Part shown: piece after piece, positions 38,427-55,544 of the stretch
How positions within the stretch are numbered: the first letter of the stretch is position 1
Layout: each line of letters begins with the position of its first letter
DNA from: a virus
Lineage: Duplodnaviria; Heunggongvirae; Uroviricota; Caudoviricetes
Reading direction: 5' to 3' (one strand)
Virus record (IMG/VR): IMGVR_UViG_2925897562_000001
Length of the DNA: 64,000 nucleotides
Notes under the pieces: generated by a model
What the model was told of the DNA's origin: nothing
The model's input: only the letters and a program-made list of their open reading frames with translations
Databases searched by the model: none
Program-made: the position numbers and the translations under genes

Positions 38427-41400
38427 ATGAACAAGCTATCTATGGGGGTGTTTCGCTGTTCAAGTGTCAGCGAAATATTGAAATACATTAGGGCAATAAC
38501 ATCTCACCGAGCGCCGATTAAATACGGCGTGGAAAAGGTGGAAGGCAAAAGCTATGACCGACTGCGCCGTGAGGCGAATCAGAAGGCGATAGATTTGCTT
38601 AATTCGCTGGTGGACGGCGCGACACTGACAGATGAACAGCGCCAGATCCTGGCTGGGTACACCGGTGAAGGCGGCATTGGCGGGTCCGTCTCCGAATATT
38701 ACACACCAAAGCCGATCGCTGAAGGTGTCTGGGAGATCATGAAGCTCTACGGCGCGGACGTAGGTAACACTCTGGAACCATCGGCGGGAACCGGCGTTTT
38801 TAATGAGACAAAACCGGTTGGTACGGTGATGACCGCGACTGAGATCAGCAGTGTTTCCGGTCGTATAAACCAGCTGTTGCACCCGGAAGACAGCGTACAG
38901 ATTTCTCCGTTCGAACAACTGGCTGTAAGCACGCCTAACGATTCATTCGACCATGTTGTGGGTAACGTTCCGTTCGGTGGTCGTGATAACACACGCAACA
39001 TCGATAAGCCTTACGCAGAAGAAACGGACATGGGTTCTTACTTCATGCTCCGCATGCTGGACAAGATAAAGCCAGGCGGATTCATGTGCGTGATTGTGCC
39101 GCCGTCCATTGTTTCAGGTTCAAACATGAAGCGGTTACGCCTGCGCCTATCACGGAAAGCTGAATTTCTTGGTGCCCACCGCTTGCCTACCGGTACTTTT
39201 GACGCAAACGGGACCAGTACAGTTGTTGATGTGGTGCTGATGCGCAAACATCCGGCAGAGATGGCTGAGAAAATCCCCCTGGTGGATGAAAGCACTCTCG
39301 AATCGGCAAATGTGCTTTGGCCAACGTTTATTTCTGGCAAGTGGTTTGAAAAGGACGGCCGCCGGTTTGTTCATGGCACCCAGGAAAAGGGCTTCCAGGG
39401 GCGTATTGAGGTTCGTGCCGACGGTCAGATTGATAACCAGGCTCTTAAAGCGAAGCTGATTCATCGTTTCGAAAGCCGTATCGACTGGTCTTTGCTCGAT
39501 ATGGCTGAACCGTCACCGACCGCAGACGTTGTTGGTGAAGGGGAAATGCGCCTGATTAATGGCGTATGGCAAAAATATGCTGGTGGTCGCTGGATTGAAG
39601 CTGATGCCGGGAAGGAACTTAAGATCGATGCTGCCAGTTATGGCGCGGATAGCTGGGAGGCTCTTCAGCGTAACCTGACTACAACAGAAGGCCGTCTCGG
39701 CATGACATTTACCCAGATGGCAAATGTCCGCGATAAGTACACCACATCAATCAGCGACGATATGGTGCAGCTGGTGGACTGGATTAACAGCCAGCCTGAA
39801 AAATACCGTGAACGCTTGTATCGCGGGGCGATGATTGGCCGGATGTTAATTGAATATCAGGACATGAAGGCCGCCGGGCATAGTGCTGAACAAATCGAAC
39901 AGCAGCGCCTTTCTCTGGTATCCCGTTTGCAGGCAGAGATTGACCGTTTTGGTAACCCCGGTCGCGGTCCGATAGCGAAATTGTCGGGGAGCGGTGCGCG
40001 CGCCTGGTTTGCTTTCCGTGGTGCAATTAAGCTGGATGGCACTATTTCTGACGAGCTGACAGGGAAGCTGGTTACGCATGATTCCAGCGCAAGTTATGAC
40101 TCCACCAGCTATCAGGACACCCTGCGTTATCTCTATAGCGATCTCACCCGCGATCCAATCCAGCTCGATGATTTCCGCCTTGCGTTTACCGGCGAACTGC
40201 CAGCCAGTGATGAAGAGTTGCTTAATTTATTGGCCAGCACCCCTGGTATTGCGGTTTCACCGTATGGCGGGATTGTTCCGTTCGCCCGCGCCACCAGCGG
40301 CGACATTAACGAGATAGTGGCTCCAAAACAGGAATTCCTCGCCACACTCCCCGACGGTCCAGTAAAGAACAACGTCCTTAATCAGCTGGCAGCTATCGAA
40401 GAGAAGCGCATCAAGACGCCAGCAGAGAATATCCGGTTTAAGCTCAATAGCCGTTGGTTCGACCGTTCCGTCATTCTGGAATTTTTGCAGGAAAACGGCT
40501 ATCCGGATCTGCGCTATGTGCAGTCAGTGCAGCTGGAAGGCGACGAAATGGTTTCTGACACCTATCACGGTGGTGATGGTCTGTTCGTCGGGCACCGATA
40601 CGGTGTCGTCCAGCGCAAGGATAAAGAAACAGGTGAGATTCGCTACGAGTGGGACCGTAAATCAGGTGAAAACGCGACCGGGTTCCCGGCACAGCTGGAA
40701 AAGTATCTCAATGGTGCGCGTATCGGTGGCAAAGATAGCGCGACGGCGAACGGCTACCGCGAGCAGATGGCACTGCTTGAGGACCAGTTCAATAAGTGGA
40801 TCAAGACGCACGATCGCTACGATGAGCTGGTTGCCAAATACAACGATGTGTTCAATAGCAATATCCCGTATGAACACTCTGGCGATCCGCTTGGGTTGAA
40901 GGGATTAAGCGGTAAGCGCCAGCCATTTGATTACCAGAATAGCGAGGTGCGCCGACTGTCCGAAGATGGGCGCGGCATCCTGGGCTTCGGCACCGGGCTG
41001 GGTAAAACCACGACCGCGCTGGCGCTTGAGGCGTTCAACTATGAGAACGGTCGCTCCACCCGTACTGCGTATGTAGTGCCTAAATCAGTGCTGGAAAACT
41101 GGTATTACGAAGCAAAAGAATTCCTGAGTGAAGAGGCATTCAGTAACTACCTGTTCGTCGGTCTTGATGTGCTGATGGATGGCGATCAGATTCGCCAGGT
41201 GCCGGTGCTCGATGAGAACGGTAAACCTGTTCTTGGTACTGATGGCACTCCAGTTATGCGCGATGCCTTAAAACTGGCAGATGAAGCCACTATCACGGCG
41301 CGGATGAACGCGATCCCGCACTCAAATTACCGTGCAGTCGTGTTTACCAAAGAACAATACGCCCGCATTCCGCTACGTGATGACACCGTAGATGAGCATG

Positions 41401-44400
41401 CACAGGATATGCTTTATGACTTCGTTGCCGCCGGACGCGTAGCCAGCGCAATGGACTCCGACTCCCACCGCAAAGAGGCCGCGCGTCGCCGGGTATTGTC
41501 GGAGTATTCAGATACCGGCACCGAAAAAGCAGAGAAGTATCCGTACTTTGAGGATATGGGCTTCGATAGTGTGATCGCTGACGAAGGTCACAACTACCGC
41601 AATAGCTATAAAAATGGTCGCGAAGCGTCACAACTGGCCTATCTGCCCACCAGCGCGGTGGCGCAATCGGCGCGAGATATGGCAATTAAAAACGCGTACC
41701 TGATGAAAAAGAATGGTGGGCGCGGGCCGGTTCTCCTGACTGCAACGCCAGTCGTTAACACCCCGATCGATGCATACAACATGCTTTCTCATGTTCTGCC
41801 GAAGGAATACTGGCAGAACATGGGGATCTACGGTCCTGATGACTTCGTTAAATTCTTCGGCAAGACCAGGCTGGAAACGGTACAGAAAATTAGCGGTGAA
41901 GTTGAAGAAAAAATGGCGCTGGTGGGCTTTGAAAACCTTGATGCGCTGCGCGGTATATTCCATCGCTGGGTAACGCTTAAAACGGCGGAAGACGTTAAGG
42001 ATACCGTGGAGATCCCGGAGCTGGACGAACACCAGCAGGATGCACCACTTACTGAAGAACAACTGGCGGCGTATGAAGAATTGCGTCAGCAGGCGGAAGC
42101 GGCGGCCAAAGCCAACAATGGCGTAACGACCTCGGTCAATGAAGACGGCGTGATTGAGCACGAGAAAGCCCGTCCGATCTTCTCAATAATCAGGGATATG
42201 GACCGCGTATGTACTGACATGGACCTGTACTATCGCCGGATCACCTATCGTTTCCTGCCGGAGTACGCCGATGCGGTGCAGCAGCTGGCGGACAGTTTGC
42301 CTAAACAAGCCACCAGCGAAGACGACGACAGTGATGATTCAATCACGCAGCAATCGCAATACTCCCTGATAGATAAGGGCGAGTTTATTCAGTTGCAGGT
42401 TCCGGAAGCGTTCGAGCAGGAAGTGAATAAGCGCCTGGCCAGGTTTGGCATTGACGAACAGACCGTAACTCACCCCGTTACGCCCAAATACGCGAAGCTG
42501 ATTGCCACGCTGAAGGAGTTTTTCCCGGAAGGTAAGCAAATCATCTTCACCGATGAAAAAACGCAGCACCAGAAGCTCAAGCGCATTATCTGCAATGCTC
42601 TTAACCTTGAACCTTCAAAGGTGGGGATACTGAATGCTCAGACGGTTGCCGAGGCAGGTAAAACCGGTAAGAAACTGAAAGCGGTTAAACCGCCGAAAGA
42701 GTTACCGGATGAACCAACAGATGCACAGATAGCGAAATACAACGAGCAAATGGCTCTGTATGACGCCTATATCGCGCAGCAAAATGAAATGTCGTTGGGC
42801 GGTCTGGAAAAGATTGCAGCCGACTTCCAGGAGGGCCGGACTCCGATCATCATCTGCAACAAAAAGGCAGAGGTGGGTATCAACCTGCATCGAGGAACGA
42901 CTGACATCCATCATCTGACGTTGCCATGGACTCCAGCCAGTATTGCGCAACGAAACGGTCGCGGTGCCCGAGTTGGCTCCAACCGTGCAAGCGTTCGCGT
43001 TCACTACTACTGCGGCAAGGGGTCTTTCGATGAATACCGACTGAAGACGCTGAAGCGTAAAGCAGGCTGGATCTCCGATATCCTCCGTTCAGATAAGTCA
43101 GAAATGGAGAACGCCGACGCCAACGATATGATCGAAATGCAGATGTATACCGCGAAGGATGACGGCGAACGTCTGGCAATGATGCAGGTTCAAATGGATA
43201 AGGCGAAAGCTGCGAAACGCGCTCGCCAGAAAGAACAGGCTACTATCGACCTTCAGAACTACATCAAGGCGCAGCACGCAGCTGGTGAGGATGTGGAGGT
43301 ACTTACCGCTGAATTGGAGCGAAGCAAAGCGGAACTTGAAAAGACCACCGCCGACGTCGCCAAATTCAAACAGGCGGTAATGGCCAAAGCAGCTGATAAC
43401 GCAGACTGGAAAGCCCGCTGGGGTAGCGTCCATCACACAGACCGTATGTTGTTAGCACAGTATCGCGCGTCGTTGAAAAGCGCCATTCAGCGCAAGGCTA
43501 ATATCTCTCAGGCCATCTCCCGCTATGAGAAATTATTGAACCGTACTCAGAAGGCCGCGACGGATATCAAACGCCTGCGCCCGCTGGTGGAGGATGCAAT
43601 AAATAAAGGCATTCTGGATGTTGATCCTGATCTGGTTAACCATGCGAATGAGTTCCTTGTTATCGGCGATCGCTCATGGCGTGTAGGCCAATACTATGAT
43701 TGTGCCGGTGATATCGTTCGCATTAAGTCGCTGGACTTCGACAGCCAGCGCGCAGACGTGGAGATCATCTTTACCTTCAAAGGCACCAAATCGGGTAACT
43801 GGGATGTGAAGACGCTGGATAAACAGGTTGATGTAACTCCCGATGAAGATGCTGTTATGCAGAAAATCAGTGGTGGCGTCTCCATCGCCGGGATTAACGA
43901 CATCGTTTCCTGTGACGATTTCTACCGTTTCCAGCAGCGCGGCATGATCAAAATCACTGACTCATACGGCGTTCAGACTACAGAGTCAGGCTATAGCATT
44001 GATTTTGTTGGTACCTATACGGACCCACTGAAGCATGCGGTTTACCCGGATCGCCGTGACAGCGCGCTGAAGTCGTCAATTGCAAAATGGGTGCTTGGTA
44101 TGATGTCGGAAGGGAATAACCGCCAGATCCGTTCGGCAGAAACATTCCTGGTTGAACTGTTTGGCTCCAATTATGGCGATGTAATCGCGTCATACGGAGA
44201 TACGCTATCCCCTGAAGCAATTCAGGAGAAAATAGCGGATGCGATCGCCAGAATGCCGGAAAAAACAAGCCAGGGGGCTACTCGTAACGGGGATTCTGAA
44301 CTTGAAGTCACCAATGCCATTTTCGGTACCAATGAGTTCCGGGCGTCAGATTATGAGATCACCACAGCACAGTTTGGCACCATTGGCATTTACAGCAATA

Positions 44401-45194
44401 AAGACGAGATCAAGCAGACAATGGACGCAGCAAGCGCGCGCATTGCAGCAGAACGGAAAGCCAATCTGAATCATGCAGTCGCCGCGCTGACTCAATCGTG
44501 GGTAACAGCAATCAGGAAGGCCGCCACCACAGGGAAAATCACACCGGCAATTGCGGATGTCGTAAACGACGGCTCTAAATTTATGGATGCCTATCAAATG
44601 GATGCGGTGCAGTTGCCATCAGCCTATGGGCAACTCAGCTATCGCATGACCTACAACCTGGTATCAATGTTTACCGACCTTGCCATCCTTGGGCTGGTGG
44701 ACCTTAACGAGGTTACGCCGGAATTGCTCAGCATGCGCAAGAATCATGTGGAGATATTGCACAGAATTAACACGGTACTTGCCGGGCGCACCGATGAAGA
44801 GAAACAGGCAGACGCTGATCGGATAAACCTGGCCCTTGGCAACATCACGGAGGAAGAAATTGCCGCCAGAAACGAGAAACAAGAAGAGTTATCATCAATA
44901 CAGGGTGATGCCACCAGCATAGCTCAGTCTCTTGGTCTGAATTATCGCGTATCCACCGCCGACCTGAAGATGATGTACGCACCAAAATTCGCCGCTGGCG
45001 AGGTATTTGGGCTTCAGGAAGCCTCCGGCATGAAAGGGGTTCTTTTCCGTGCGAAAGACGCAATCAAGGCGAAATTCGGCGCTCGCTGGTTGCCAGCGAA
45101 GGCGAAGAACAGCGACTTCCCAGGTAACTGGTGGATTATCGAGACAAAACACAACGTGGCGGACGTTCTGGCCGTCATCCAACAATACGCATAA
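38427..45194 (+). CDS. darB: DarB anti-restriction protein, N6-adenine methyltransferase plus SF2 helicase fusion (2255 aa)
   Basis: 2255 aa; MTase motif VVGNVPFGG; helicase Walker A GFGTGLGKTT, DEGH box VIADEGHNYRN, motif VI QRNGRGARVGS. Confidence 0.9.
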   Translation: MNKLSMGVFRCSSVSEILKYIRAITSHRAPIKYGVEKVEGKSYDRLRREANQKAIDLLNSLVDGATLTDEQRQILAGYTGEGGIGGSVSEYYTPKPIAEGVWEIMKLYGADVGNTLEPSAGTGVFNETKPVGTVMTATEISSVSGRINQLLHPEDSVQISPFEQLAVSTPNDSFDHVVGNVPFGGRDNTRNIDKPYAEETDMGSYFMLRMLDKIKPGGFMCVIVPPSIVSGSNMKRLRLRLSRKAEFLGAHRLPTGTFDANGTSTVVDVVLMRKHPAEMAEKIPLVDESTLESANVLWPTFISGKWFEKDGRRFVHGTQEKGFQGRIEVRADGQIDNQALKAKLIHRFESRIDWSLLDMAEPSPTADVVGEGEMRLINGVWQKYAGGRWIEADAGKELKIDAASYGADSWEALQRNLTTTEGRLGMTFTQMANVRDKYTTSISDDMVQLVDWINSQPEKYRERLYRGAMIGRMLIEYQDMKAAGHSAEQIEQQRLSLVSRLQAEIDRFGNPGRGPIAKLSGSGARAWFAFRGAIKLDGTISDELTGKLVTHDSSASYDSTSYQDTLRYLYSDLTRDPIQLDDFRLAFTGELPASDEELLNLLASTPGIAVSPYGGIVPFARATSGDINEIVAPKQEFLATLPDGPVKNNVLNQLAAIEEKRIKTPAENIRFKLNSRWFDRSVILEFLQENGYPDLRYVQSVQLEGDEMVSDTYHGGDGLFVGHRYGVVQRKDKETGEIRYEWDRKSGENATGFPAQLEKYLNGARIGGKDSATANGYREQMALLEDQFNKWIKTHDRYDELVAKYNDVFNSNIPYEHSGDPLGLKGLSGKRQPFDYQNSEVRRLSEDGRGILGFGTGLGKTTTALALEAFNYENGRSTRTAYVVPKSVLENWYYEAKEFLSEEAFSNYLFVGLDVLMDGDQIRQVPVLDENGKPVLGTDGTPVMRDALKLADEATITARMNAIPHSNYRAVVFTKEQYARIPLRDDTVDEHAQDMLYDFVAAGRVASAMDSDSHRKEAARRRVLSEYSDTGTEKAEKYPYFEDMGFDSVIADEGHNYRNSYKNGREASQLAYLPTSAVAQSARDMAIKNAYLMKKNGGRGPVLLTATPVVNTPIDAYNMLSHVLPKEYWQNMGIYGPDDFVKFFGKTRLETVQKISGEVEEKMALVGFENLDALRGIFHRWVTLKTAEDVKDTVEIPELDEHQQDAPLTEEQLAAYEELRQQAEAAAKANNGVTTSVNEDGVIEHEKARPIFSIIRDMDRVCTDMDLYYRRITYRFLPEYADAVQQLADSLPKQATSEDDDSDDSITQQSQYSLIDKGEFIQLQVPEAFEQEVNKRLARFGIDEQTVTHPVTPKYAKLIATLKEFFPEGKQIIFTDEKTQHQKLKRIICNALNLEPSKVGILNAQTVAEAGKTGKKLKAVKPPKELPDEPTDAQIAKYNEQMALYDAYIAQQNEMSLGGLEKIAADFQEGRTPIIICNKKAEVGINLHRGTTDIHHLTLPWTPASIAQRNGRGARVGSNRASVRVHYYCGKGSFDEYRLKTLKRKAGWISDILRSDKSEMENADANDMIEMQMYTAKDDGERLAMMQVQMDKAKAAKRARQKEQATIDLQNYIKAQHAAGEDVEVLTAELERSKAELEKTTADVAKFKQAVMAKAADNADWKARWGSVHHTDRMLLAQYRASLKSAIQRKANISQAISRYEKLLNRTQKAATDIKRLRPLVEDAINKGILDVDPDLVNHANEFLVIGDRSWRVGQYYDCAGDIVRIKSLDFDSQRADVEIIFTFKGTKSGNWDVKTLDKQVDVTPDEDAVMQKISGGVSIAGINDIVSCDDFYRFQQRGMIKITDSYGVQTTESGYSIDFVGTYTDPLKHAVYPDRRDSALKSSIAKWVLGMMSEGNNRQIRSAETFLVELFGSNYGDVIASYGDTLSPEAIQEKIADAIARMPEKTSQGATRNGDSELEVTNAIFGTNEFRASDYEITTAQFGTIGIYSNKDEIKQTMDAASARIAAERKANLNHAVAALTQSWVTAIRKAATTGKITPAIADVVNDGSKFMDAYQMDAVQLPSAYGQLSYRMTYNLVSMFTDLAILGLVDLNEVTPELLSMRKNHVEILHRINTVLAGRTDEEKQADADRINLALGNITEEEIAARNEKQEELSSIQGDATSIAQSLGLNYRVSTADLKMMYAPKFAAGEVFGLQEASGMKGVLFRAKDAIKAKFGARWLPAKAKNSDFPGNWWIIETKHNVADVLAVIQQYA

Positions 45195-45227
45195 CAGGAG
45201 CGCCCGGTTCGCCGGGCGTCGCATAAT

Positions 45228-45668
45228 ATGGCCACACTATCTGATACAATAAAACCGAATAAAACATATCTTGAGGCGGTACTCCGTACAGCGTTGTTAG
45301 GAAAGACAGAAGACGAATACGTTGATTTCTTCCTGTCAGGGCTACGCGGGCGATTACTGAAAAATCCCCGCCTGTACCGCAGCTATGGTCCATACTGGCC
45401 GGAAATTAAAAAATTATTACTGGAGCGCGGTTATGGTAATTTCGGTCGTCTCGTTGACCGTGACGTTCGCAAAATTTACCGTTATGACCGCCCGGCGCTA
45501 ACACTCATAGCCGCGACGCTCTACAGCCAGGAGCGTTTTGATAATGGTCAGATATACTCAGCCTGGCATTTACTGCCAGTGCCTGAAGAAGTTGACGACC
45601 AGGACTATGAGTTTGAGTCTTACGATTTGGAAGTTGAAGCCTTGGCACAGGCTGGAGAGAAAACTTGA
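45228..45668 (+). CDS. ulx: Ulx (146 aa)
   Basis: Immediately downstream of darB, as in P1. Confidence 0.6.
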   Translation: MATLSDTIKPNKTYLEAVLRTALLGKTEDEYVDFFLSGLRGRLLKNPRLYRSYGPYWPEIKKLLLERGYGNFGRLVDRDVRKIYRYDRPALTLIAATLYSQERFDNGQIYSAWHLLPVPEEVDDQDYEFESYDLEVEALAQAGEKT

Positions 45669-45913
45669 AAAAGCGATACTACACAGTAAAGCATGGGACG
45701 CTACGAGCATTACAAGAGTTTGCTGATAAGCATAACGTTGAGGTGCGCAGGGAAGGGGGAAGTAAAGCTCTGCGCATGTACCGCCCGGACGGGAAATGGC
45801 GGACGGTGGTCGATTTCAAAACTAACAGTGTTCCCCAGGGCGTCCGCGATCGGGCATTCGAAGAATGGGAGCAGATCATCATAGATAACGCATTGCTCCT
45901 GAATGCAGATTGA
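45665..45913 (+). CDS. lxc: Lxc/Bof C1 corepressor (82 aa)
   Basis: 82 aa, coupled to ulx. Confidence 0.65.
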   Translation: MKKRYYTVKHGTLRALQEFADKHNVEVRREGGSKALRMYRPDGKWRTVVDFKTNSVPQGVRDRAFEEWEQIIIDNALLLNAD

Positions 45914-45949
45914 CAATTTTGCCCGGAATTACCGGGCAAAATTAAGCAA

Positions 45950-47086
45950 CTATCCTTCGTTACGAAGATGCTTATCTAAGAATTTTGTAAACTGGTTTGT
46001 TGAGCCAAAATAGTTGGGGTAGGCTTTTTTTAGTGACTTAATGTTATCTGTAGCAACGAGAACAGATATCAATACATTAGGATTAGAATCGTCTTTATTT
46101 AAGGCCTCAAGGGCTTCATCTGCTTCTTTTGTTTTAAATGCGCGAACAGACACTAGGAACATTTTTTTGTTTTTTGTATTGGGCTTGTTTTCTGCATTTC
46201 TCATTGTTACTAAGTAATGCCCCTTATGATTTTTTGGCAACTTCTTAATCAAATTCGCGTCAGAAGTTAAATTTAAGGCGATGGTGTATGTGCTTAGTTT
46301 CCTCCGTACAGATAAAGTCCGTTCCAGCTCTTTAAGCTCGCCTTCATACTGAGATACAACTAGCTCATCAAGAGTGCAGGCTTTTTCGTCGTGCGCTACA
46401 AGACATCCGGCTAGATAGAAAAATCGTCTCCATTCTGGATGCCCTTCACTTGAAGTTTTCAGCTTGATACCTTCAAGGGTATCAATTATTTCAAGGCTGG
46501 TAGCCCAAGCATGCTGCAATTGAGTTCTTAACTGTATCTCAATCTTTGTTTTTCGCCACGGATATTGATCCTCTTTCTGATCGAAGCAACTGTATGCAAG
46601 GTGGATTCCACTATAGCCGCTGTCTTTGGGAGTAAGATAATCATACTCTTTAACAATCCTATGAACAGATTTGCTTTTTAAAAGACGTTCCTTTAGCTGT
46701 ATCAACTGGTCTAAGTTTCTGACAATGGCCCTACATCCGCCAACGTCCTGCATCCGTGTTAATTTAATTGCATTGCTAGTTCTGCCTCCATCAAGACTAG
46801 GACGCTCTAGTTTATCTATTATGGTAGAAAGTCGCTTAAGTCTTCTTGCAACGAGAATCTTTTTGTCCTTGTCAACCTTAGCAGCTGCTCTTGCTAAATG
46901 ATTTTTCATGAGCATTAATGGATAAAGATGCAGCTCACGGAAATTTTGTATCATTTCAATAGATTGCTGCCTTTCTTCGTCACTACACCCGTGCCTTATC
47001 AATTGAGCAGCCCTATCAATTTGAGATTTTGAATATTTCAACTTGCATTTTTGACTTTGATAAACTTCATTCCCCATTGCTTTCAT
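45950..47086 (-). CDS. fused toxin-antitoxin anti-phage protein: N-terminal RelA/SpoT-like nucleotidyltransferase (toxSAS), C-terminal Cys-free regulatory domain; CapRel-like (378 aa, or 375 aa from ATG at 47077)
   Basis: RSH synthetase signature RMQDVGGCRAIV, DSGYSGIHLAY, EIQLRTQLQHAWATSLEI; no separate antitoxin ORF; occupies the slot of P1 res/mod. Confidence 0.8.
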   Translation of the reverse strand: MKAMGNEVYQSQKCKLKYSKSQIDRAAQLIRHGCSDEERQQSIEMIQNFRELHLYPLMLMKNHLARAAAKVDKDKKILVARRLKRLSTIIDKLERPSLDGGRTSNAIKLTRMQDVGGCRAIVRNLDQLIQLKERLLKSKSVHRIVKEYDYLTPKDSGYSGIHLAYSCFDQKEDQYPWRKTKIEIQLRTQLQHAWATSLEIIDTLEGIKLKTSSEGHPEWRRFFYLAGCLVAHDEKACTLDELVVSQYEGELKELERTLSVRRKLSTYTIALNLTSDANLIKKLPKNHKGHYLVTMRNAENKPNTKNKKMFLVSVRAFKTKEADEALEALNKDDSNPNVLISVLVATDNIKSLKKAYPNYFGSTNQFTKFLDKHLRNEG

Positions 47087-47179
47087 CCATTTTAAATGAT
47101 TTACATGCTGTTACATCTAATGATAAAGCGGTTAGAAAATCAATGGAGAATGTAACCACAAAATTACTGTATGTAATTG

Positions 47180-47821
47180 TTAAAAATAATTATGCTTGCC
47201 TGTTAATACCCCTTTCGGCACTTTTTTTTGTTCCAGTATCTGGGTGCCCAGAATTATGTTAATCAGTGGACTTAGTAACGATGGTTCTTGGCGGGCCTCA
47301 ACTTCTCCAGCCATTGCCCTGATGTAGTCGGCGCTGGCAACGTTGTTGTATTCCGTCGCAAAGCAACATAGTAACGTCAGAACATGCTCTGTCGTTATTT
47401 CGCTCCAGTTGATGTTGAAAAATTCATCGCCTTTTTTATCGTGTTCGGAATCGAAGATGCTTTGGTGGAGAATGTATTTGCCGGATTCCTTGCGCGGTAA
47501 CTTGATTGCTTTCTGGCGTTCCAGCTCCTTATAAATCTGCATTGCCTCAATTAGTACCGGCCTGCCGTTCATGAAGGGATCGCGCAACCTTACACGCTGG
47601 CCAACTCGACCAGTAATAAAGCTGTTTTCCTCTTCCACCAGCACGATAAAACCCTTTTCCTCTTTTTCTCGCAATTCGCGCAGCAGCTGGAGTTCCATAT
47701 CGCGGCGGCGTTCAGGGTAGCTGGTCCGCTCAGCCATTATCAGCTCGTTATTGATCCATGCAGCAGTCATTGACGCCGGTTTGCCGACGCTCATCGAAAC
47801 AACGCATATTTTCTTATCCAT
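47180..47821 (-). CDS. hypothetical protein (213 aa from ATG at 47821), Mat-like by position
   Basis: AGGGGG RBS before ATG at 47821; between ref and the defence slot. Confidence 0.45.
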   Translation of the reverse strand: MDKKICVVSMSVGKPASMTAAWINNELIMAERTSYPERRRDMELQLLRELREKEEKGFIVLVEEENSFITGRVGQRVRLRDPFMNGRPVLIEAMQIYKELERQKAIKLPRKESGKYILHQSIFDSEHDKKGDEFFNINWSEITTEHVLTLLCCFATEYNNVASADYIRAMAGEVEARQEPSLLSPLINIILGTQILEQKKVPKGVLTGKHNYF

Positions 47822-48010
47822 AGCGCCCCCTACAAAAAAGAAAAGCCACCAGCGGCGGCTTAGCAATACAACTGAAGGTAGCGCCCGGTACTCAGACTGT
47901 GCCGTCCATGGAATATTTGAAAAGGGATCCATCCGTACCGGGCATGTGATGATTCTGACTGAAGTCACTTGTCAGTTGTCAATCATTTATCATTAAAAAT
48001 AATATATTTA

Positions 48011-48571
48011 TTAGTGCATGATGTTTGCCATCTCATAGGCGTCAGCCAGTAACTCCATCTCTGACTTGTTCAGCAAGGTGAATTCTTTCTTGCCTCCAAC
48101 CACACCATCGGCATGAACAGGGACCAGCCAGGGGTATTTTGCTCTTACTTCAGCCGGTGCTGCATGCTGGTGGTGCCATCTGCAAAGGGGCAATTGCTTT
48201 TTGTGACAACCCGGCGCGGTACGACCGGAGATATGGTGCAGAGACACCTCTTCAGATATTACTCCATGCATGTAGCAGGCAATGCAGGGGAGAGTGCCAA
48301 GAGCATTGGCGATAGTCTGTTCCTCCTCCGTCGGTGTTCGCCCCTTCAAGCCACGAGATTTTATTTTTACCGCACTTTTCCGCGTTTTGCTGGCTGGTGG
48401 GCGCTCTTTCTGTTTAGCGATACGGCGGTCGATAGAATCCCGCATTTTCTGATATTGCGATTCTCGCCAGGCGGGGTCAGCCAACTTTTCCCGTTGCCGA
48501 GCGATCGCTCGTTCTCTGGCTGCCTTCTGCCACTCGCGGCGCTGTTCAAGTTTTTGTTCGATTGTTTTCAT
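48011..48571 (-). CDS. ref: Ref recombination enhancement function, HNH endonuclease (186 aa)
   Basis: Starts MKTIEQKLEQRREW; basic N-terminus; HNH motif CIACYMHG...LHHISGR...CRWHH. Confidence 0.8.
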   Translation of the reverse strand: MKTIEQKLEQRREWQKAARERAIARQREKLADPAWRESQYQKMRDSIDRRIAKQKERPPASKTRKSAVKIKSRGLKGRTPTEEEQTIANALGTLPCIACYMHGVISEEVSLHHISGRTAPGCHKKQLPLCRWHHQHAAPAEVRAKYPWLVPVHADGVVGGKKEFTLLNKSEMELLADAYEMANIMH

Positions 48572-48669
48572 ATGGCAAAAAAAAGGCGGCCTAATGGCCG
48601 CCAATGATGTCAAGGAGTGAAGTAATGGCAACGTCTTCGTAGTTGACAAAAACTGCGGCCAAATTATAG

Positions 48670-48686
48670 CAATCAATTAGAGCAAT
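48670..48686. promoter_or_regulatory. C1 operator-like site(s) upstream of ref
   Basis: Tandem partial operators AAATTATAGCAAT and CAATTAGAGCAAT. Confidence 0.5.
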
Positions 48687-48818
48687 GGTATATATTTTGT
48701 TTCTCGCGAATCACATTTTTTCACTTCAGTACCTGTGTGCTATACTCCTTCTTGATTGATTGGATGCGGAATACAAACCCGCTCTTTTGTGCAGCCTGGC
48801 TCCTTGCCAGGCTTTTTT

Positions 48819-49180: not shown

Positions 49181-50212
49181 CTAATTGCCATCTTCCAGCA
49201 GGCGCACCATTGCCCCTGTTTCACTATCCAGGTTACGGATATAGTTCATGACAATATTTACATTGGTCCAGCCACCAGCTTGCATGATCTCCGGTATTGA
49301 AACTCCAGCGCGGGCCATATCTCGCGCTGCTCCGACACGGGCACTGTGTCCAGACCAGGCCAGGTATCTCTGACCAGAGTCATCCTTAGCGCCGTAAATC
49401 AATCGATGAGTTGCTTCAAAAATCCCTTCCAGGGCGCGAGTTGATAGCTGGCTGGTGGCAGATGGCGCGGCAACACCATTTTTTCTGACCCGGCAAAACA
49501 GGTAGTTATTCGGATCATCAGCTACACCAGAGACAGAAATCCATCGCTCGACCAGTTTAGTTACCCCCAGGCTAAGTGCCTTCTCTACACCTGCGGTGCT
49601 AACCAGCGTTTTCGTTCTGCCAATATGGATTAACATTCTCCCACCGTCAGTACGTGAGATATCTTTAACCCTGATCCTGGCAATTTCTGCTATACGTAGC
49701 AGGGTATTATAAGCAATCCCAAGAAATGCCAGATTACGTATATCCTGGCAGCGATCGCTATTTTCCATGAGTGAACGAACCTGGTCGAAATCAGTGCGTT
49801 CGAACGCCAATGCCTGTTTTGCACGTTCACCGGCATCAACGTTTTCTTTTCGAATCCGCCGCATGACCAGTGAAACAGCATTGCTGTCACTTGGTCGTGG
49901 CAGCCCGGACCGACGATGAAGCATGTTTAGCTGGCCCAAATGTTGCTGGATAGTTTTTACTGCCAGACCGCGCGCCTGAAGATATAGAAGATAATCGCGA
50001 ACATCTTCAGGTTCTGCGGGAAACCATTTCCGGTTATTCAACTTGCACCATGCCGCCCACGACCGGCAAACGGACAGAAGCATTTTCCAGGTATGCTCAG
50101 AAAACGCCTGGCGATCCCTGAACATGTCCATCAGGTTCTTGCGAACCTCATCACTCGTTGCATCGACCGGTAATGCAGGCAAATTTTGGTGTACGGTCAG
50201 TAAATTGGACAT
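49181..50212 (-). CDS. cre: Cre tyrosine site-specific recombinase (343 aa)
   Basis: Essentially identical to canonical Cre (MSNLLTVHQNLPALPVD...); loxP 419 bp upstream. Confidence 0.97.
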   Translation of the reverse strand: MSNLLTVHQNLPALPVDATSDEVRKNLMDMFRDRQAFSEHTWKMLLSVCRSWAAWCKLNNRKWFPAEPEDVRDYLLYLQARGLAVKTIQQHLGQLNMLHRRSGLPRPSDSNAVSLVMRRIRKENVDAGERAKQALAFERTDFDQVRSLMENSDRCQDIRNLAFLGIAYNTLLRIAEIARIRVKDISRTDGGRMLIHIGRTKTLVSTAGVEKALSLGVTKLVERWISVSGVADDPNNYLFCRVRKNGVAAPSATSQLSTRALEGIFEATHRLIYGAKDDSGQRYLAWSGHSARVGAARDMARAGVSIPEIMQAGGWTNVNIVMNYIRNLDSETGAMVRLLEDGN

Positions 50213-50630: not shown

Positions 50631-50664
50631 ATAACTTCGTATAATGTATGCTATACGAAGTTAT
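50631..50664. other. loxP: loxP site
   Basis: Exact ATAACTTCGTATA-ATGTATGC-TATACGAAGTTAT. Confidence 0.97.
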
Positions 50665-50707
50665 TAGGTCCGAAGAGGAGTTTACGTCCAGCTGCGCATA
50701 AAAATCA

Positions 50708-50724
50708 AGAATTATTAGAGCAAT
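50708..50724. promoter_or_regulatory. C1 operator (Op99-type)
   Basis: AATTATTAGAGCAAT matches reverse operator consensus. Confidence 0.55.
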
Positions 50725-50784
50725 AAATTTTGAGAGAAAAATCCCACTCCACCAGCCAAAAACTGGATTGTTTTTCATAGTTGT

Positions 50785-50811
50785 TTGACAATTGCTCTAA
50801 TAAATTATAGT
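50785..50811 (+). promoter_or_regulatory. C1-repressed promoter for coi-c1 (TTGACA -35 overlapped by operator ATTGCTCTAATAAATTA)
   Basis: TTGACA at 50785-50790; operator 50791-50807 (16 of 17); TATAGT -10-like. Confidence 0.6.
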
Positions 50812-51045
50812 TTTGCCGCCGTTTCGTAATACGACTTTGGATTCACTATTTAATGTGTCTTCAGCGTTGTAGAGCGGCTCAGAAGGAAATGAGCAAACAG
50901 GGAAACCTTATACAACGGCATTACAGCTATGCATTGCTCATCTTACACACAGCGCAATGTTGTTAGATTACCCCAGCATGGATCATGGGTGAAACAGTAG
51001 GTCAGAGCTTCAGGCTCTGTGTTGTCAATACAGTGAGGCATAATT

Positions 51046-51255
51046 ATGGCTTTCATTCCACCAACCATCGACGACGTTAGACATTGCTCTAACGCTTTAT
51101 CTGTAGACCCCGCCGAAACCGACGCTGCCCGCGCCATTGCTGAACACTACTCAAAGATATCCAATCAGGAGTACCGCATCACCCAAGACGACCTGGATGA
51201 TCTCACTGACACAATCGAATATCTCATGGCCACTAACCAGCCAGACTCACAATAA
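51046..51255 (+). CDS. coi: Coi, C1 inactivator (69 aa)
   Basis: 69-aa ORF immediately upstream of c1. Confidence 0.8.
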   Translation: MAFIPPTIDDVRHCSNALSVDPAETDAARAIAEHYSKISNQEYRITQDDLDDLTDTIEYLMATNQPDSQ

Positions 51256-51365
51256 ATGCACTAATAAATCTATTATTTTCGTTGGATCCTTCTATAATGG
51301 TGGCCAACAACTCCCAGTGTAATCCGCTGTGAGTTGTTGGCCATGTCAATTCTGGAGGAGGATCA

Positions 51366-52217
51366 ATGATAAATTATGTCTACGGCGAACAACTGTACCA
51401 GGAGTTCGTCAGCTTCAGGGATCTCTTTCTAAAAAAAGCTGTTGCACGCGCCCAACACGTTGATGCCGCCAGCGACGGTCGTCCTGTACGCCCGGTTGTC
51501 GTTCTGCCGTTCAAAGAAACTGACAGCATTCAGGCTGAAATTGATAAATGGACTTTAATGGCGCGGGAACTGGAACAGTACCCAGACCTCAATATCCCAA
51601 AGACTATTTTATATCCAGTACCTAACATCCTTCGCGGTGTGCGTAAGGTTACGACTTATCAGACAGAAGCTGTGAACAGCGTCAACATGACCGCTGGCCG
51701 CATTATTCATCTGATTGATAAGGACATTCGCATCCAGAAAAGCGCAGGGATCAATGAGCACAGTGCGAAATACATAGAGAACCTGGAAGCAACAAAAGAG
51801 CTAATGAAGCAGTACCCGGAGGATGAAAAATTCCGTATGCGCGTACACGGCTTTAGCGAAACAATGCTGCGCGTCCATTACATTTCTAGTAGCCCTAACT
51901 ACAATGATGGTAAATCAGTTAGTTACCATGTGCCGCTATGTGGTGTGTTTATCTGCGATGAAACTCTCCGTGATGGAATTATCATCAACGGTGAATTCGA
52001 GAAAGCAAAATTTAGCCTTTATGACTCTATAGAACCGATCATCTGCGACCGCTGGCCGCAGGCAAAAATATATCGCCTGGCAGATATTGAAAATGTAAAA
52101 AAACAAATTGCCATCACTCGCGAAGAGAAAAAGGTCAAATCAGCCGCATCAGTTACGCGCAGCCGTAAAACTAAGAAAGGGCAGCCAGTAAACGACAACC
52201 CCGAAAGCGCGCAATAG
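51366..52217 (+). CDS. c1: C1 primary immunity repressor (283 aa)
   Basis: 283 aa; position between coi and pacB; cognate operators throughout window. Confidence 0.9.
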   Translation: MINYVYGEQLYQEFVSFRDLFLKKAVARAQHVDAASDGRPVRPVVVLPFKETDSIQAEIDKWTLMARELEQYPDLNIPKTILYPVPNILRGVRKVTTYQTEAVNSVNMTAGRIIHLIDKDIRIQKSAGINEHSAKYIENLEATKELMKQYPEDEKFRMRVHGFSETMLRVHYISSSPNYNDGKSVSYHVPLCGVFICDETLRDGIIINGEFEKAKFSLYDSIEPIICDRWPQAKIYRLADIENVKKQIAITREEKKVKSAASVTRSRKTKKGQPVNDNPESAQ

Positions 52218-52241
52218 TTTCCATCCGGCATGGTCAATGAG

Positions 52242-53726
52242 TTATTCATTAAGCCATGCCAGAGCTTCATCAACCTGCGCTTCGTCTTCGACGCTAAGCA
52301 CTTCATCCTGGGGAACATAATCCGCCAGCATAGCGAAACAATATGTATCCCAATGGTCTGGTGAGTGCAGGTTGAGTTTTTTCTTCATATCCTCCTTACT
52401 CATCACCTTCCATTGACCTGCGGAGTTAATCCCTACAGGGATTTTCGACGCTTCCTCAATAGTTTCATTACCCTTATCCAGTCTCATACGACCAGATTTT
52501 ACGGCCTCTGCGGCTTGAACGTTGGCATAAGCACGTTTATCAAAGTACAGGCTCTTATCTTCACGGCTATGCATCTTTTTACCCCAGCGTATACGCTGTA
52601 CGGTAATACCATAATACTCGTACATCAGATCCGCCGTTGCTTTACCCAGCCCATCGCCGTCTATCGCTATGGTGATATTTGGGAATCGCTCAGGATTACA
52701 TTCTGCGAAAATTTTGGCGGCAAGCTGCGTTTCTGTAACGTCTGTGTATTCCAGCATTCGATAGTTGATTACACGGCGTTTATTTCTCTGGCCGGACACC
52801 ATCATGATATTGATAACGGACTTATCCCGTCCCGTACCACCAGCAACGTCCACACATGCAAGCCAGCCCCATCCTTTGGCAATCTTGACTTTCCGCCGCG
52901 TCGCACGTTCAACCTCATCACGTCCAAGAAGGAAGCCATCCTGTGATTTAGGGAATAGTCCGCGTACCTTAATCATGTACATAGGGTTATCACGCCCGCC
53001 GTACTCCGCCAGCTTCATTTTGATAAATGCTGGCGTTACCAGCGGTGATTCCTCACTGTTAAGCGTGATCGCCGTATAAACGCCATCAGGGTTACCAGGA
53101 CGCTTGGCCAGTTTATGGTGAGTATCGTAGAAATAGCCGCTTGGGCGTGTAGGCTGTGACAGTAATAAGATGCGGTTATCCTGTCCGGTAAGAGCACCGG
53201 TGATGATACCGAAAGCTCTATCACTGACACCGGAGGCTTCATCGATAATATACAGAAGATGATCTGCGTGTTCACCGGCGAGAGCTTCTTCACTTCCCAG
53301 ACGAAAGCCCTTCGGTACTACAGTCCATACACCTTTACCAGTAACCTCATAGAAAGCGGTTTCTGTCAGAACAAAATAATCAGCAAGCCATGGAAAACGG
53401 CTGGTGGCAGTAGCCCAGTTTATCTTGATGTACTTGAATATACCGGTCATTACCTGCTGAATTTTGTTCGCAACGATAATGGCGCGGGCACCGGGATACA
53501 TGATTATGAACAACATGATCATGATAGAAGTCATGTCTGATTTCCCGGTACCGTGACCAGACGAAACAGATGTCTTGCTACCCTGTTCCTGCACAGACTC
53601 AATAATCAGATCCTGCTGCCAGGTAGGTGTTTTGCCGAACAAAACATCAGCGGCAGCAATCCAGTCATAACGATATAGCGCCACCAGCTCGCGCCAACGT
53701 GGATCCGTTACGCAACTTCTGGCCAT
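52242..53726 (-). CDS. pacB: terminase large subunit PacB (494 aa)
   Basis: Walker A SGHGTGKS, Walker [12 protein letters not shown]-terminal nuclease domain; coupled to pacA. Confidence 0.9.
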
Positions 53727-54919
53727 TAATCATCATCCCCGTATAGCTTGCGGGTAACTTCTTCGTCTTCCTCCTCGTCTTCGTCCAGGTCTTGTTCCAG
53801 CCATGGGTCGTTTGATACACCTTCAGTATCAACATCTCCATAACCGCCTGTATCAACGATATCGGCGATTTCTTCCCTACGCTGCTCAATCCACAATGCG
53901 GCATCGGCGCGGCGGTTGGCGGCCCGTTCTCGCGCAACTTTGTCCAGATCTTCAAGAGAAGGGCCACCGACGGCTGTTTGCCTTTCCTCATCATCGGTAT
54001 TGGTCTTAGGAGCACGCAGATCGGCTTTGATTTGCTCCAGCATCAGGGGCGGCACTTTTCCGCCATGCGCCTCGATGAATTCAGCTGCTTCCAGCACTGA
54101 CCAGTTATTTTCACGCTTTCGTTCGTATGCCAGCTTAACAATGCCAGCTTGCCCCATAGATAAAGCGTGCTTTTCCGCCTCCCGGCTTTCTTTTCGATAG
54201 TTATTCCGGATGCTGTAAATGGTGTTGATCAGGCTGCTTATCTGCGCGGAACAGCTGTTTAGCATGCTCGCGATACGATATTCAGGCGGAGTCCCTTCAT
54301 CATCGTCTTTTTGCTGATCGCGCATTTCCTGCACCAGACGAATACACGTATCCCTGGCGTTCTCCAGCATAAGGAGATGAGAAAGTGACTTTTCCAGAAG
54401 AGTGGTTTCCAGAACATCGGCCCCGGACCGACGCAACATAGCGCGCGCGGCCTTCCGCGCTTCAACGTTATCTATCAGGTAATCGCCAGCTTCGAATTCA
54501 AAGCGTTCACCATCATCATCCAGGGTGTCGCGTTCCAGGCGATCACGTAAGGTCCGGTGGGCGCGGGTGATCACGTCATGATCATCAGAACGATCATTTA
54601 TGCGCTTATTTTGGCGCTTCGCATTCTCGACTGCGGCACTGACAACGGCATTAACCCTTTGTTTTTCCGCTATTTCAGCCGCAATGTGATCACCTGCATG
54701 TTGATCATTAGAGTGATCAATGATCATGCTTTTTAGTGGCTTCCTGACTGGCTTATTTGGCTTGCGGCTGTCCGCTGTCCTGGTGTCTTCTTTGAAGGCA
54801 CGGAGATAACGACGTGCAGTATTAGGGTTAAGATTAAACTCGGCGGCATACTGTGCGATGGTGTAACCACCATCTCGCGCCAGGCGAGCAAAATTCTTCT
54901 TGTGATCGTCCCAGGTCAC
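53726..54919 (-). CDS. pacA: terminase small subunit PacA (397 aa)
   Basis: 397 aa; contains pac site; acidic C-terminus. Confidence 0.9.
54541..54726. other. pac: pac packaging site (two clusters of TGATCA / GATC Dam-site hexamers)
   Basis: GATC at 54541, 54569, 54580, 54592 and TGATCA at 54687, 54702, 54714, 54721 inside pacA. Confidence 0.75.
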
Positions 54920-55004
54920 TTATGCTTCCTTTCGTAAAAACTCTTTTTGACGCGAGGGTAACGAAAGTCACATGTCAAAAGGCCCGGAACGGGCAAGCAA
55001 TCAA

Positions 55005-55457
55005 TCAGATACGTGCGGATGTGGCATTACCGTAATGACGGTGCTGACGGGCCACCTTATTGAAAAGTTGACGCGCCATTACCCAAGGCTGGTGCTCCCG
55101 GCGTTCCTTTTCGTCCTGCGTCATATAGAGTTCGTTCTGGAGTTTTTCATCAAACCGGCGCGGAGCGCGGCTACGGCGAAAGAATTCAGGATTCAGAGAG
55201 TGGATCTGAAATCTACGTGGGCGTGTACTGTCATCAATCAAAACAGACGAATACTTAGACACAGCGATAGCCTTTAAGCGCAGATAAACATCGCGCTTAT
55301 CGACATCCAGATGCGGGTATTCCTTTTCAAGAATTGCTGCGAGTTCTTTCGCTGATAGAAGAGATTTAGTGCGGATCATGTAATCCGCAATCTCGTACGA
55401 TGTTATTCGTGAGTGATTTATTTCCATGAAGTGGCGTCCCTGCCAGTTAAGTAACAT
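55005..55457 (-). CDS. lpa: Lpa late promoter activator (150 aa)
   Basis: 150 aa, upstream of pacA; operator-like site upstream. Confidence 0.75.
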   Translation of the reverse strand: MLLNWQGRHFMEINHSRITSYEIADYMIRTKSLLSAKELAAILEKEYPHLDVDKRDVYLRLKAIAVSKYSSVLIDDSTRPRRFQIHSLNPEFFRRSRAPRRFDEKLQNELYMTQDEKERREHQPWVMARQLFNKVARQHRHYGNATSARI

Positions 55458-55527
55458 CCTGTCACCTACTGATTAGCCCATGTCAACTAATCAACGTGGA
55501 ATATAATACCCTCGATTAAAGAAATAG

Positions 55528-55544
55528 CAATACATTAGAGCAAT
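55528..55544. promoter_or_regulatory. C1 operator-like site upstream of lpa
   Basis: ATACATTAGAGCAAT partial match to operator consensus. Confidence 0.45.

Follow-up and report, generated by a model that had tools for sequence, protein, structure and literature searches.

A likely CapRel-family defence gene in the variable lxc-mat interval of a P1-like plasmid prophage

The window, a stretch of 64,000 nucleotides (IMG/VR virus record IMGVR_UViG_2925897562_000001), displays the gene order darB (38427-45194), ulx (45228-45668) and lxc on the plus strand, followed by the gene here called capRel and by mat, ref (48011-48676) and cre (49181-50212), which all lie on the minus strand like capRel (Table 1). 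The identities of the neighbouring genes were checked against the annotated P1 record. A 378-aa minus-strand ORF between lxc and the mat/ref/cre block had been proposed from the letters alone, and the ORF list together with a reading of the sequence revealed just such an ATG-initiated frame (45950-47086), with flanks matching P1. The length, however, has probably to be corrected to 375 aa: the second in-frame ATG, residue 4 at position 47077, is the likelier start compared with the upstream ATG at 47086, because this is where the SJ46 annotation, the protein in the crystal structures and the RefSeq entry all begin. A GGA stands 8-11 nt 5' of this second ATG. The RefSeq protein of the window gene is WP_000526244.1, with a length of 375 aa, which is annotated in the database only as "RelA/SpoT domain-containing protein", and a literature search with the accession WP_000526244 returned no paper.

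Only 36 nt separate the stop codons of capRel and lxc, and 93-102 nt lie between the capRel start and the mat stop, leaving no room for a separate antitoxin gene; neither intergenic gap holds a conserved small ORF, in line with the earlier reading of the ORF list that no small antitoxin ORF is found on either side. Judged from its recurrence, capRel is not a chance ORF, since at least 1000 public contigs encode the very same 375-aa protein and intact copies at least 99% identical to the gene turn up in 83 complete E. coli replicon records.

Table 1. Features of the capRel locus in the window. Residues are given in 375-aa numbering unless stated otherwise.
Feature	Coordinates	Strand	Basis or detail
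lxc, left flank of the slot, conserved P1 backbone	45665..45913	+	97.6% identical to P1 lxc/ulx
Variable cargo cassette, lxc stop (45911-45913) to mat stop (47180-47182)	45914..47179	.	Homology breakpoints
Hairpin with a perfect 13-bp stem between convergent capRel and lxc	45914..45944	.	RNA fold, -21.8 kcal/mol
capRel CDS, favoured start, 375 aa plus stop	45950..47077	-	Second ATG is the start in PDB 7ZTB/9ERV, SJ46 gp058 and WP_000526244.1
C-terminal antitoxin/sensor region, residues 269-375	45953..46273	-	AF2 secondary structure; no Cys
YPNY, putative YXXY autoinhibition motif, Y353-Y356	46010..46021	-	Aligned to SJ46 Y352/Y355
N-terminal toxSYNTH (toxin) region plus helical linker, residues 1-268	46274..47077	-	77% identical to CapRel-SJ46
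Pfam RelA_SpoT (PF04607), residues 82-196 of the 378-aa ORF	46499..46843	-	E=3e-12, 47.2 bits vs cutoff 27
Predicted sigma-70 promoter, -35 TTGATT (47143-47138), 17-nt spacer, -10 TTAGAT (47120-47115)	47115..47143	-	Read from sequence
mat-like ORF, right flank of the slot, conserved P1 backbone	47180..47968	-	94.6% identical to P1 mat-ref; RefSeq CDS 642 nt

Transcription of capRel may start from a sigma-70 promoter with a weak match to the consensus, whose counterpart in SJ46 lies at the same position and reads TTGATT-17-TTATAT; the "native promoter" construct used for SJ46 consists of the mat-capRel intergenic region. The hairpin between capRel and lxc is likely a bidirectional terminator, and SJ46 carries in the equivalent place a hairpin of other sequence (-23.9 kcal/mol). 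A consensus scan for promoters and terminators picked up neither the capRel promoter nor the hairpin, the promoter being missed due to the T at position 2 of its -10 hexamer. A search for C1 operators revealed no such site near capRel or its promoter.

The interval in which capRel lies is the one that harbors the res/mod genes in P1, as had been expected, with breakpoints at the stop codons of lxc and mat. Homology to P1, RCS47, JL22, MH422554 and others ends at 45911-45917 and restarts at 47179-47186, in some of them at 47298-47312. The cassette has a size of 1.27 kb and a GC content of 38.1%, compared with 47-50% in the flanks. Comparison across P1-like genomes unveiled unrelated cargoes between conserved flanks, namely res/mod in P1, CapRel-SJ46 in SJ46 and elsewhere a DUF2971 protein, a PIN protein or an AraC/EAL pair, while in some the slot is empty; the cargo of the lxc-mat interval is highly polymorphic, with seven states or more. 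The slot is thus a swappable cargo site, as proposed, but in our census of it in E. coli, for which seven junctions were tested, the commonest cargo counted was the AraC-HTH/EAL pair, which is no obvious defence system. Roughly 280 of the E. coli P1-like elements have a cargo outside these seven junctions. The iLund4u hotspot preprint, consulted for a P1 lxc-mat hotspot, does not mention P1. The difference between the window and SJ46 is a cassette swap and not drift in place, because the synonymous sites of capRel are saturated while the flanks of the two are at least 97% identical.

We are confident that the window gene encodes a CapRel-family fused toxin-antitoxin, acting as an abortive-infection anti-phage system of the P1-like plasmid prophage and its host. 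The protein matches crystallised CapRel-SJ46 (PDB 7ZTB/9ERV) over its full length with E=5e-185 and 73.7% identity, Foldseek gives these two entries the names "Salmonella tRNA pyrophosphokinase CapRel" and "CapRel bound to Bas11 Gp54", and the PADLOC profile PDC-S33 also spans the full length (6.7e-86). For the N-terminal part, the predicted (p)ppGpp-synthetase-like signature was recovered both as a Pfam RelA_SpoT match above its cutoff and as the three nucleotidyltransferase motifs quoted earlier, located at residues 111, 155 and 183 of the 378-aa ORF; the toxSYNTH region also fold-matches small alarmone synthetases in Foldseek. R79 and R116, which coordinate ATP, and the G-loop Y155 (codon 46613-46615, minus strand) are invariant across 57 homologues. 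Twelve of twelve mutationally tested CapRel-SJ46 residues are kept in the window protein (A77, R79, R116, Y155, L280, L307, V338, L339, A341, A351, Y352 and Y355 in SJ46 numbering), their functional roles having been established in CapRel-SJ46 (PMC9712102).

The C-terminal region consists of an anchor-1 helix, a pseudo-zinc-finger domain (pseudo-ZFD) of strand-strand-helix-strand order and anchor-2, and varies more across the family than any other part. Its description as Lys-rich and Cys-free holds, as Lys makes up 14.8% of the last 108 aa and Cys is absent there, compared with 9.6% Lys and six Cys in the first 270 aa. An AF2 model (pLDDT 83.7, pTM 0.83) places strands at residues 286-294, 307-315 and 335-342 and a helix at 316-330, flanked by helices at 257-279 and 346-371, and thus predicts the pseudo-ZFD topology of CapRel, in which a helix is inserted between the second and the third strand of an antiparallel three-stranded sheet. 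With open crystal forms the model superposes at an rmsd of about 10 Å and a TM-score of 0.70-0.76, which only hints at a different domain arrangement. The YPNY motif is invariant across the 57 homologues; the role of YXXY was shown through Y352A/Y355A in SJ46 (PMC9712102). The autoinhibition-interface residues A77, V338, L339, A341 and A351 are all identical to SJ46. Full-length homology, predicted pseudo-ZFD topology and the invariant YXXY agree with the CapRel-type fused architecture put forward in the original prediction.

Among E. coli P1-like genomes, 97 of 698 carry capRel; complete E. coli genomes contain WP_000526244.1, the very protein of the window, about five times as often as the SJ46 allele. 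The presence of CapRel in E. coli P1-like phage-plasmids was reported earlier in a survey preprint (bioRxiv 10.1101/2025.09.12.675607). The window allele is neither CapRel-EcHT nor CapRel-Ebc, whose gBlock sequences (machine-read from Supplementary Table 4) were matched to the database proteins P0026 and P0031, respectively, and Kp CapRel is much more distant. Partial capRel copies were seen on some plasmids, and a remnant truncated by ISKpn26 on a chromosome. Chromosomal matches to the C-terminal third were considered as free-standing antitoxin or decoy genes and rejected, being IS-truncated remnants of P1 fragments amid ISKpn26, IS26, IS3 and IS1. The two-CDS capRel of vB_EcoM-673R5 was likewise rejected as a pseudogene lineage, its sole differences being two 1-nt deletions; as these are single-A deletions in A-runs and a similar deletion is found in mat of that record, the split is likely a sequencing error.

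Established directly for the window gene are its homology, the conservation of functional residues, the fold topology as modelled, the single-gene architecture, the slot position and the population frequency; autoinhibition, tRNA pyrophosphorylation and abortive infection would follow by homology from CapRel-SJ46. In that protein, the N-terminal fragment is toxic and is neutralised in trans by the C-terminal fragment, as demonstrated for SJ46 only (PMC9712102). In a lysogen, capRel would probably be transcribed from its own weak constitutive promoter, and in the uninfected cell the pseudo-ZFD would fold back onto toxSYNTH, with the YPNY motif between R79 and R116 blocking the ATP site. When a sensitive phage infects the cell, one of its proteins may bind the pseudo-ZFD and the anchor helices and hold the enzyme open. 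The open toxSYNTH, with 77% identity to that of SJ46, is expected to modify the 3'-CCA end of tRNAs with pyrophosphate taken from ATP, by which aminoacylation, translation and phage production would be blocked.

Other functions were weighed against this. A non-toxic small alarmone synthetase, which makes (p)ppGpp and tunes host physiology for the prophage, would agree with the RelA_SpoT match, with database annotations as "GTP pyrophosphokinase" and with a weak similarity to the structures of RelP, RelQ and YjbM (E=1e-5 to 2e-8). It is nonetheless very improbable: the NCBIfam equivalog for the GTP diphosphokinase YjbM scored 35.5 bits with a cutoff of 320, identity to such enzymes is about 20% compared with 74% to the tRNA-pyrophosphorylating CapRel, and the window protein has an autoinhibitory C-terminal domain and a YXXY motif, both absent from them. 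Equally hard to credit is a plasmid-addiction module that stabilises the P1-like plasmid through post-segregational killing and has no anti-phage role, in spite of a toxin-antitoxin architecture on a low-copy plasmid prophage. A single polypeptide comprises both toxin and antitoxin, which therefore cannot differ in stability, as such killing requires, unless proteolysis separates them; moreover, about 86% of the E. coli P1-like elements do without capRel, the slot also holds restriction-modification and other defence-candidate genes, and the type member has been shown to defend against phages (PMC9712102). That capRel is decaying, non-functional cargo might be suspected from the truncated or interrupted copies, including the ISKpn26 remnant, the partial plasmid copies and the split in vB_EcoM-673R5, and is just as improbable, as the window copy is intact, has dozens of identical complete counterparts elsewhere and retains all family-invariant residues, and the split points to sequencing error.

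For a CapRel-family defence protein, the more delicate aspect is the trigger. In the specificity region, equivalent to SJ46 residues 270-339, the window protein has an identity of 62% with SJ46, 61% with CapRel-EcHT and 52% with CapRel-Ebc, while SJ46 and EcHT share 51%. The window sensor is thus roughly equidistant from two alleles linked to capsid sensing, nearer to each than they are to one another, and farthest from Ebc. We regard the major capsid protein as the leading trigger candidate, in a judgement that is evenly balanced, because SJ46 and EcHT both appear to sense one despite their low mutual identity; L280 and L307, required for capsid sensing in SJ46, are kept as well. Capsid sensing cannot be assumed, though, since the sensor has diverged from that of SJ46 to this extent and since CapRel-Ebc, in spite of an overall identity of 70% with SJ46, responds to T7 Gp0.4 in complex with host FtsZ and not to a capsid protein (PMC13423816).

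A trigger other than the major capsid protein, with a phage range unlike that of SJ46, is therefore a plausible if somewhat doubtful reading. Candidates would be a small accessory phage protein, as Bas11 Gp54 for SJ46, or a phage protein together with a host protein, as for CapRel-Ebc. Besides the limited identity of the specificity region, the dN between the window and SJ46 alleles argues for it, being twofold higher in the pseudo-ZFD (0.31) than in the catalytic core (0.155); dN/dS by domain was dropped and dN by region kept, because synonymous differences are saturated (pS 0.72-1.3) and no meaningful ratio can be obtained. Of the SJ46 positions implicated in the binding of Gp54, S279, which was mutationally tested, is replaced by K, and K269, a contact in the complex structure (PMC11578894), by N; further differences are K277I, R314K and K315T. 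Against a non-capsid trigger stand the retained leucines and the relative closeness to SJ46 and EcHT noted above. Whether the predominant CapRel allele of E. coli P1-like phage-plasmids recognises a trigger or phage range other than that of SJ46 we judge to be finely poised; if it does, the two alleles in the P1 slot would form a natural allelic series for retargeting of the pseudo-zinc finger.

The window protein is an uncharacterised but common CapRel allele, ordinary in kind: what CapRel is, how it works and that P1-like elements carry it has already been published (PMC9712102; bioRxiv 10.1101/2025.09.12.675607). For CapRel-SJ46 the structures, the mechanism and two triggers are known, and the new allele leaves the general picture unchanged. 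Its phage range matters because the allele is so much commoner than that of SJ46, is annotated only generically and has a diverged sensor; it bears on predicting the phage susceptibility of E. coli with P1-like plasmids, for instance in phage therapy or in P1 transduction. A comparison of the window, SJ46 and EcHT alleles would show which sensor residues set trigger specificity.

Compared with known systems, housekeeping small alarmone synthetases such as RelQ, RelP and YjbM have about 200-230 aa and no C-terminal regulatory domain, unlike the window protein of 375 aa with its extra C-terminal domain. Bicistronic toxSAS, such as PhRel/ATphRel of mycobacteriophage Phrann and FaRel2/ATfaRel2, share a RelA/SpoT-fold toxin that pyrophosphorylates tRNA, an activity expected by homology for the window protein, and the FaRel2 structure 8PU3 was a distant fold match (E=3e-3), but toxin and antitoxin are separate genes there, whereas the window has a single ORF without a neighbouring small one. 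The EcoP1I type III restriction-modification system, res/mod of P1, occupies the identical lxc-mat interval and is also anti-phage cargo; its mechanism and proteins are unrelated, and it takes up about 6.3 kb including IS5 instead of 1.27 kb.

Among fused CapRel proteins, CapRel-Ebc of Enterobacter chengduensis (Nat Microbiol 2026) keeps the catalytic Tyr and YXXY, though it is only 69% identical to the window protein overall and differs in its sensor, the trigger in its case being T7 Gp0.4 in complex with host FtsZ. CapRel-EcHT of E. coli HT2012018 (Zhang et al. 2022, Extended Data Fig. 6h) protects from Bas8, whose escape mutants are altered in the major capsid protein, and has the sensor segments LIKKLPKN, GH[YF]LVTM and KEADEALEAL in common with the window protein, all absent in SJ46; the two are 70% identical overall, and the different upstream region of EcHT places it outside the P1 slot. 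The closest counterpart is CapRel-SJ46 (Salmonella phage SJ46 gp058; Zhang et al. Nature 2022 and 2024), a tRNA pyrophosphokinase and demonstrated phage-defence system (PMC9712102), and indeed the described Salmonella P1-like example to which the original prediction had referred. It belongs to the same family, with the same length and domain order, and lies in the identical slot of a P1-like phage, between lxc and mat, with a positionally conserved promoter and a hairpin after the stop codon. The window protein is nevertheless a distinct allele, which diverges in the specificity region, has a beta6-beta7 loop longer by one residue and carries 40 substitutions from SJ46 residue 265 on.

The minus-strand ORF that the original prediction described as a fused RelA/SpoT-type toxin is present, opens with ATG, contains all three quoted RelA/SpoT-type motifs and ends in a Lys-rich, Cys-free region (14.8% Lys and no Cys in the last 108 residues). 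Comparison with the annotated P1 genome also bore out its neighbours: on the left are darB, ulx and lxc, encoded on the plus strand; on the right, mat, ref and cre share the minus strand with the ORF. A second in-frame ATG is the likelier start, because it corresponds to residue 1 of the Salmonella phage SJ46 gene product, of the crystallised protein and of RefSeq WP_000526244.1; the first ATG would be a possible start as well, since it is retained in both the window and SJ46 alleles.

The protein matched RelA_SpoT in Pfam (3e-12) and, over its full length, the single-gene defence candidate PDC-S33 in PADLOC (6.7e-86); its score with the NCBIfam model of the housekeeping GTP diphosphokinase lay far under the cutoff (35.5 vs 320 bits). 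We regard as decisive for its CapRel identity the full-length match to PDB 7ZTB and 9ERV (E=5e-185), labelled in Foldseek as 'Salmonella tRNA pyrophosphokinase CapRel' and 'CapRel bound to Bas11 Gp54'. Global identity to CapRel-SJ46 (SJ46 gp058) was 73.7%, with 77% in residues 1-270, 61% in 271-340 and 73% in 341-373. All 12 residues whose roles in CapRel-SJ46 were established by mutagenesis (PMC9712102) are identical in the window protein: the G-loop tyrosine Y155, R79 and R116 for ATP coordination, A77, V338, L339, A341 and A351 of the autoinhibition interface, Y352 and Y355 of the YXXY motif, and L280 and L307 for capsid sensing. Across 57 aligned homologues, R79, R116, Y155 and the YXXY motif YPNY are invariant. 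The AlphaFold2 model (pLDDT 83.7, pTM 0.83) revealed a C-terminal strand-strand-helix-strand fold with helices on both sides, in agreement with the described pseudo-ZFD. Its top structural matches are CapRel crystal structures (TM 0.70-0.76), and their rmsd of about 10 A suggests that the domains may be arranged differently from the open crystal form.

With the architecture and residue conservation of capRel demonstrated in this way, its activity, toxicity, defence and trigger may be inferred by homology. The C-terminal domain would keep the protein autoinhibited, with YPNY lodged between R79 and R116 to obstruct the ATP site, until a phage protein binding the pseudo-ZFD and the anchors opened the enzyme; the N-terminal toxSYNTH domain would then pyrophosphorylate tRNA 3' ends, leading to a halt of translation and aborted infection. 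That the gene might encode a housekeeping alarmone synthetase is poorly supported, being contradicted by the NCBIfam score, the full-length match to the CapRel structures and the C-terminal domain of the model. The same holds for a plasmid-addiction module, a role made unlikely by the fusion of toxin and antitoxin in one polypeptide; moreover, about 86% of P1-like elements carry no capRel. A decaying pseudogene is likewise a poorly supported reading, contradicted by the intact and widely conserved capRel copies.

The window CapRel is not the SJ46 allele: synonymous sites are saturated (pS >0.8), yet the flanks share at least 97% identity, and therefore the alleles were swapped as whole cassettes rather than diverging at the locus. 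Between the two, dN reaches 0.31 in the pseudo-ZFD, against 0.155 in the catalytic core. [quoted passage not shown] Over SJ46 270-339, the stretch that carries specificity along when swapped, the window protein is 62% identical to SJ46, 61% to EcHT and 52% to Ebc, SJ46 and EcHT sharing 51%. Bas8 escape mutations against SJ46 and against EcHT hit the same major capsid protein stretch (Zhang et al.), and the Ebc trigger is T7 Gp0.4 bound to FtsZ (PMC13423816). Of the anchor-1 helix alpha9, which in SJ46 binds Gp54 of Bas11 (PMC11578894), the window protein keeps L270, D273, N275, L276 and K278 and differs by K269N, K277I and S279K. Because of these sensor-region identities, the capsid escapes, the Gp0.4-FtsZ trigger and the mixed alpha9 conservation, we rate a capsid protein as a plausible but not established trigger of the window allele, with the balance about even.

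Homology breaks with P1 and five other P1-like phages delimit a cassette of 1.27 kb with a GC content of 38.1%, vs 47-50% in the flanks, holding capRel, a sigma-70-like promoter and a hairpin. The predicted promoter, whose SJ46 counterpart at the same position reads TTGATT-17-TTATAT, falls inside the short intergenic fragment used by Zhang et al. as 'native promoter'. Directly after the capRel stop codon lies the hairpin, a perfect 13-bp stem (-21.8 kcal/mol); SJ46 has a hairpin of other sequence at the same place. No C1-operator-like site was found close to the predicted capRel promoter, which would be compatible with expression in the lysogen. Window-wide, the P1 C1-operator consensus ATTGCTCTAATAAATTT gave nine matches with up to three mismatches, vs 0.39 expected by chance, consistent with a P1-type immunity network.

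The proposal of a swappable cargo slot between lxc and mat is well supported by relatives and by a junction census. P1 carries res/mod and IS5 there, SJ46 CapRel-SJ46, JL22 a PIN-domain protein, MH422554 an unannotated DUF2971/PDC-S31 protein, and Ro157c2YLVW and OP279344 (labelled 'P1 isolate del res del mod') a pair of AraC-HTH and EAL proteins; in RCS47 the slot is empty (39 bp). Among 698 complete E. coli genomes with ulx-lxc, out of 5426, junction queries (at least 80% coverage) counted AraC/EAL in 138 genomes, DUF2971 in 60, P1-type mod in 56, an empty slot in 35 and PIN in 30; a whole-gene search counted 83 records of the window capRel allele (at least 99% identity) and 15 of the SJ46 type (~70% identity). 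These counts cover the probed cargo types, about 280 elements carrying other cargo. The commonest counted cargo, AraC/EAL, is no obvious defence system.

Further copies were seen in other records. Phage vB_EcoM-673R5, the closest phage record here (98.9% identical over window 45200-48700), has capRel annotated as two CDS, differing from the window gene solely by two single-A deletions in A-runs; a third such deletion lies in its mat, and all are probably homopolymer sequencing errors. In some E. coli chromosomes (NZ_AP027813.1, also H105) the last 414 nt of the window capRel allele, at 99.3% identity, adjoin lxc and ulx; the annotation there gives a hypothetical protein of 84 aa. This remnant is cut by ISKpn26, with IS26, IS3 and IS1 around; it was rejected as a free-standing antitoxin and is a decayed, IS-truncated P1 fragment.

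Coordinates of the features, in the window unless another record is named
Feature	Position	Strand	Remarks
Segment in place of P1 rlfA/rlfB/pmgF (~1.8 kb)	1262-1954		~0.7 kb
ORF	1673-1999	minus	108 aa
Segment replacing part of P1 simB-simC superimmunity region	5637-6691		
ORF	5470-6144	plus	224 aa
ORF	6182-6685	plus	167 aa
Tail-fibre/invertible C-segment region	16196-22391		
ddrA	27014-27379		
Insert relative to P1	27376-28710		1.3 kb, exactly between ddrA and ddrB
TnpB/IS605 OrfB-type ORF	27419-28627	minus	402 aa
ddrB	28727-31714		
Segment in place of P1 IS1/isaB	32011-33129		
ORF	32044-33138	minus	364 aa
Left homology break	45911-45917		lxc stop codon
capRel	45950-47086	minus	378 aa; 375 aa from ATG at 47077
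Window positions of the A-run deletions in vB_EcoM-673R5 capRel	46576, 46031		
Predicted promoter	47143-47115		TTGATT, 17 nt, TTAGAT
Right homology resumption	47179-47186		mat stop codon; in some relatives ~120 bp inside mat
C1-operator consensus matches	3714, 5384, 34630, 38481, 48670, 50708, 50791, 51255, 55528		none near capRel
capRel, ON470615.2 (L001, vB_EcoM-673R5)	3777-4876		two CDS
346-aa ORF, MH422554.1 (L006, 'Punavirus P1')	1067-2107		DUF2971 (Pfam 9e-6); PDC-S31 (PADLOC 2e-16)
AraC-type HTH regulator and EAL-domain (c-di-GMP phosphodiesterase-like) protein, relatives' records L008; L007	1053-2627; 1053-2678		divergent pair
Region with the capRel remnant, NZ_AP027813.1 (L009, chromosome)	6001-7136		

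Besides the capRel cassette, five further non-P1 segments were found on comparing window 1-50,647 with P1 1-60,000 (window 50,648-64,000 corresponds to P1 outside that range). The ddrA/ddrB insert is a solo TnpB element, its protein matching OrfB_IS605, Cas12f1-like TNB and HTH_OrfB_IS605 in Pfam and Cas12f-like in PADLOC (8e-90), and contains no TnpA-sized ORF (at least 90 aa). The 364-aa ORF had no match in Pfam or PADLOC; it gave a full-length match to phrog_5902, whose function is unknown, and showed weak similarity to the terminase large-subunit ATPase (phrog_2, 4e-9); its site may be a further variable cargo position. By eye, the N-termini of the two ORFs in the simB-simC segment are hydrophobic and signal-peptide-like, and the 108-aa ORF has hydrophobic stretches; matches of all three are confined to PHROGs whose function is unknown (phrog_3933 and phrog_3429; phrog_3772). 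The tail-fibre region showed no megablast-level similarity to the P1 S/U genes and its cin-like stretch is just 69% identical to P1, a host-range module unlike that of P1 being expected among P1-like elements.

Published work (PMC9712102, PMC11578894) already covers the CapRel kind, how it acts and its presence in this slot of a P1-like phage, and a 2025 survey preprint reports CapRel as common in E. coli P1-like phage-plasmids (bioRxiv 10.1101/2025.09.12.675607). A literature search found no paper testing the window allele. The exact 375-aa protein occurs on at least 1000 public contigs, and in complete E. coli genomes the window allele is about five times commoner than the studied SJ46 allele.
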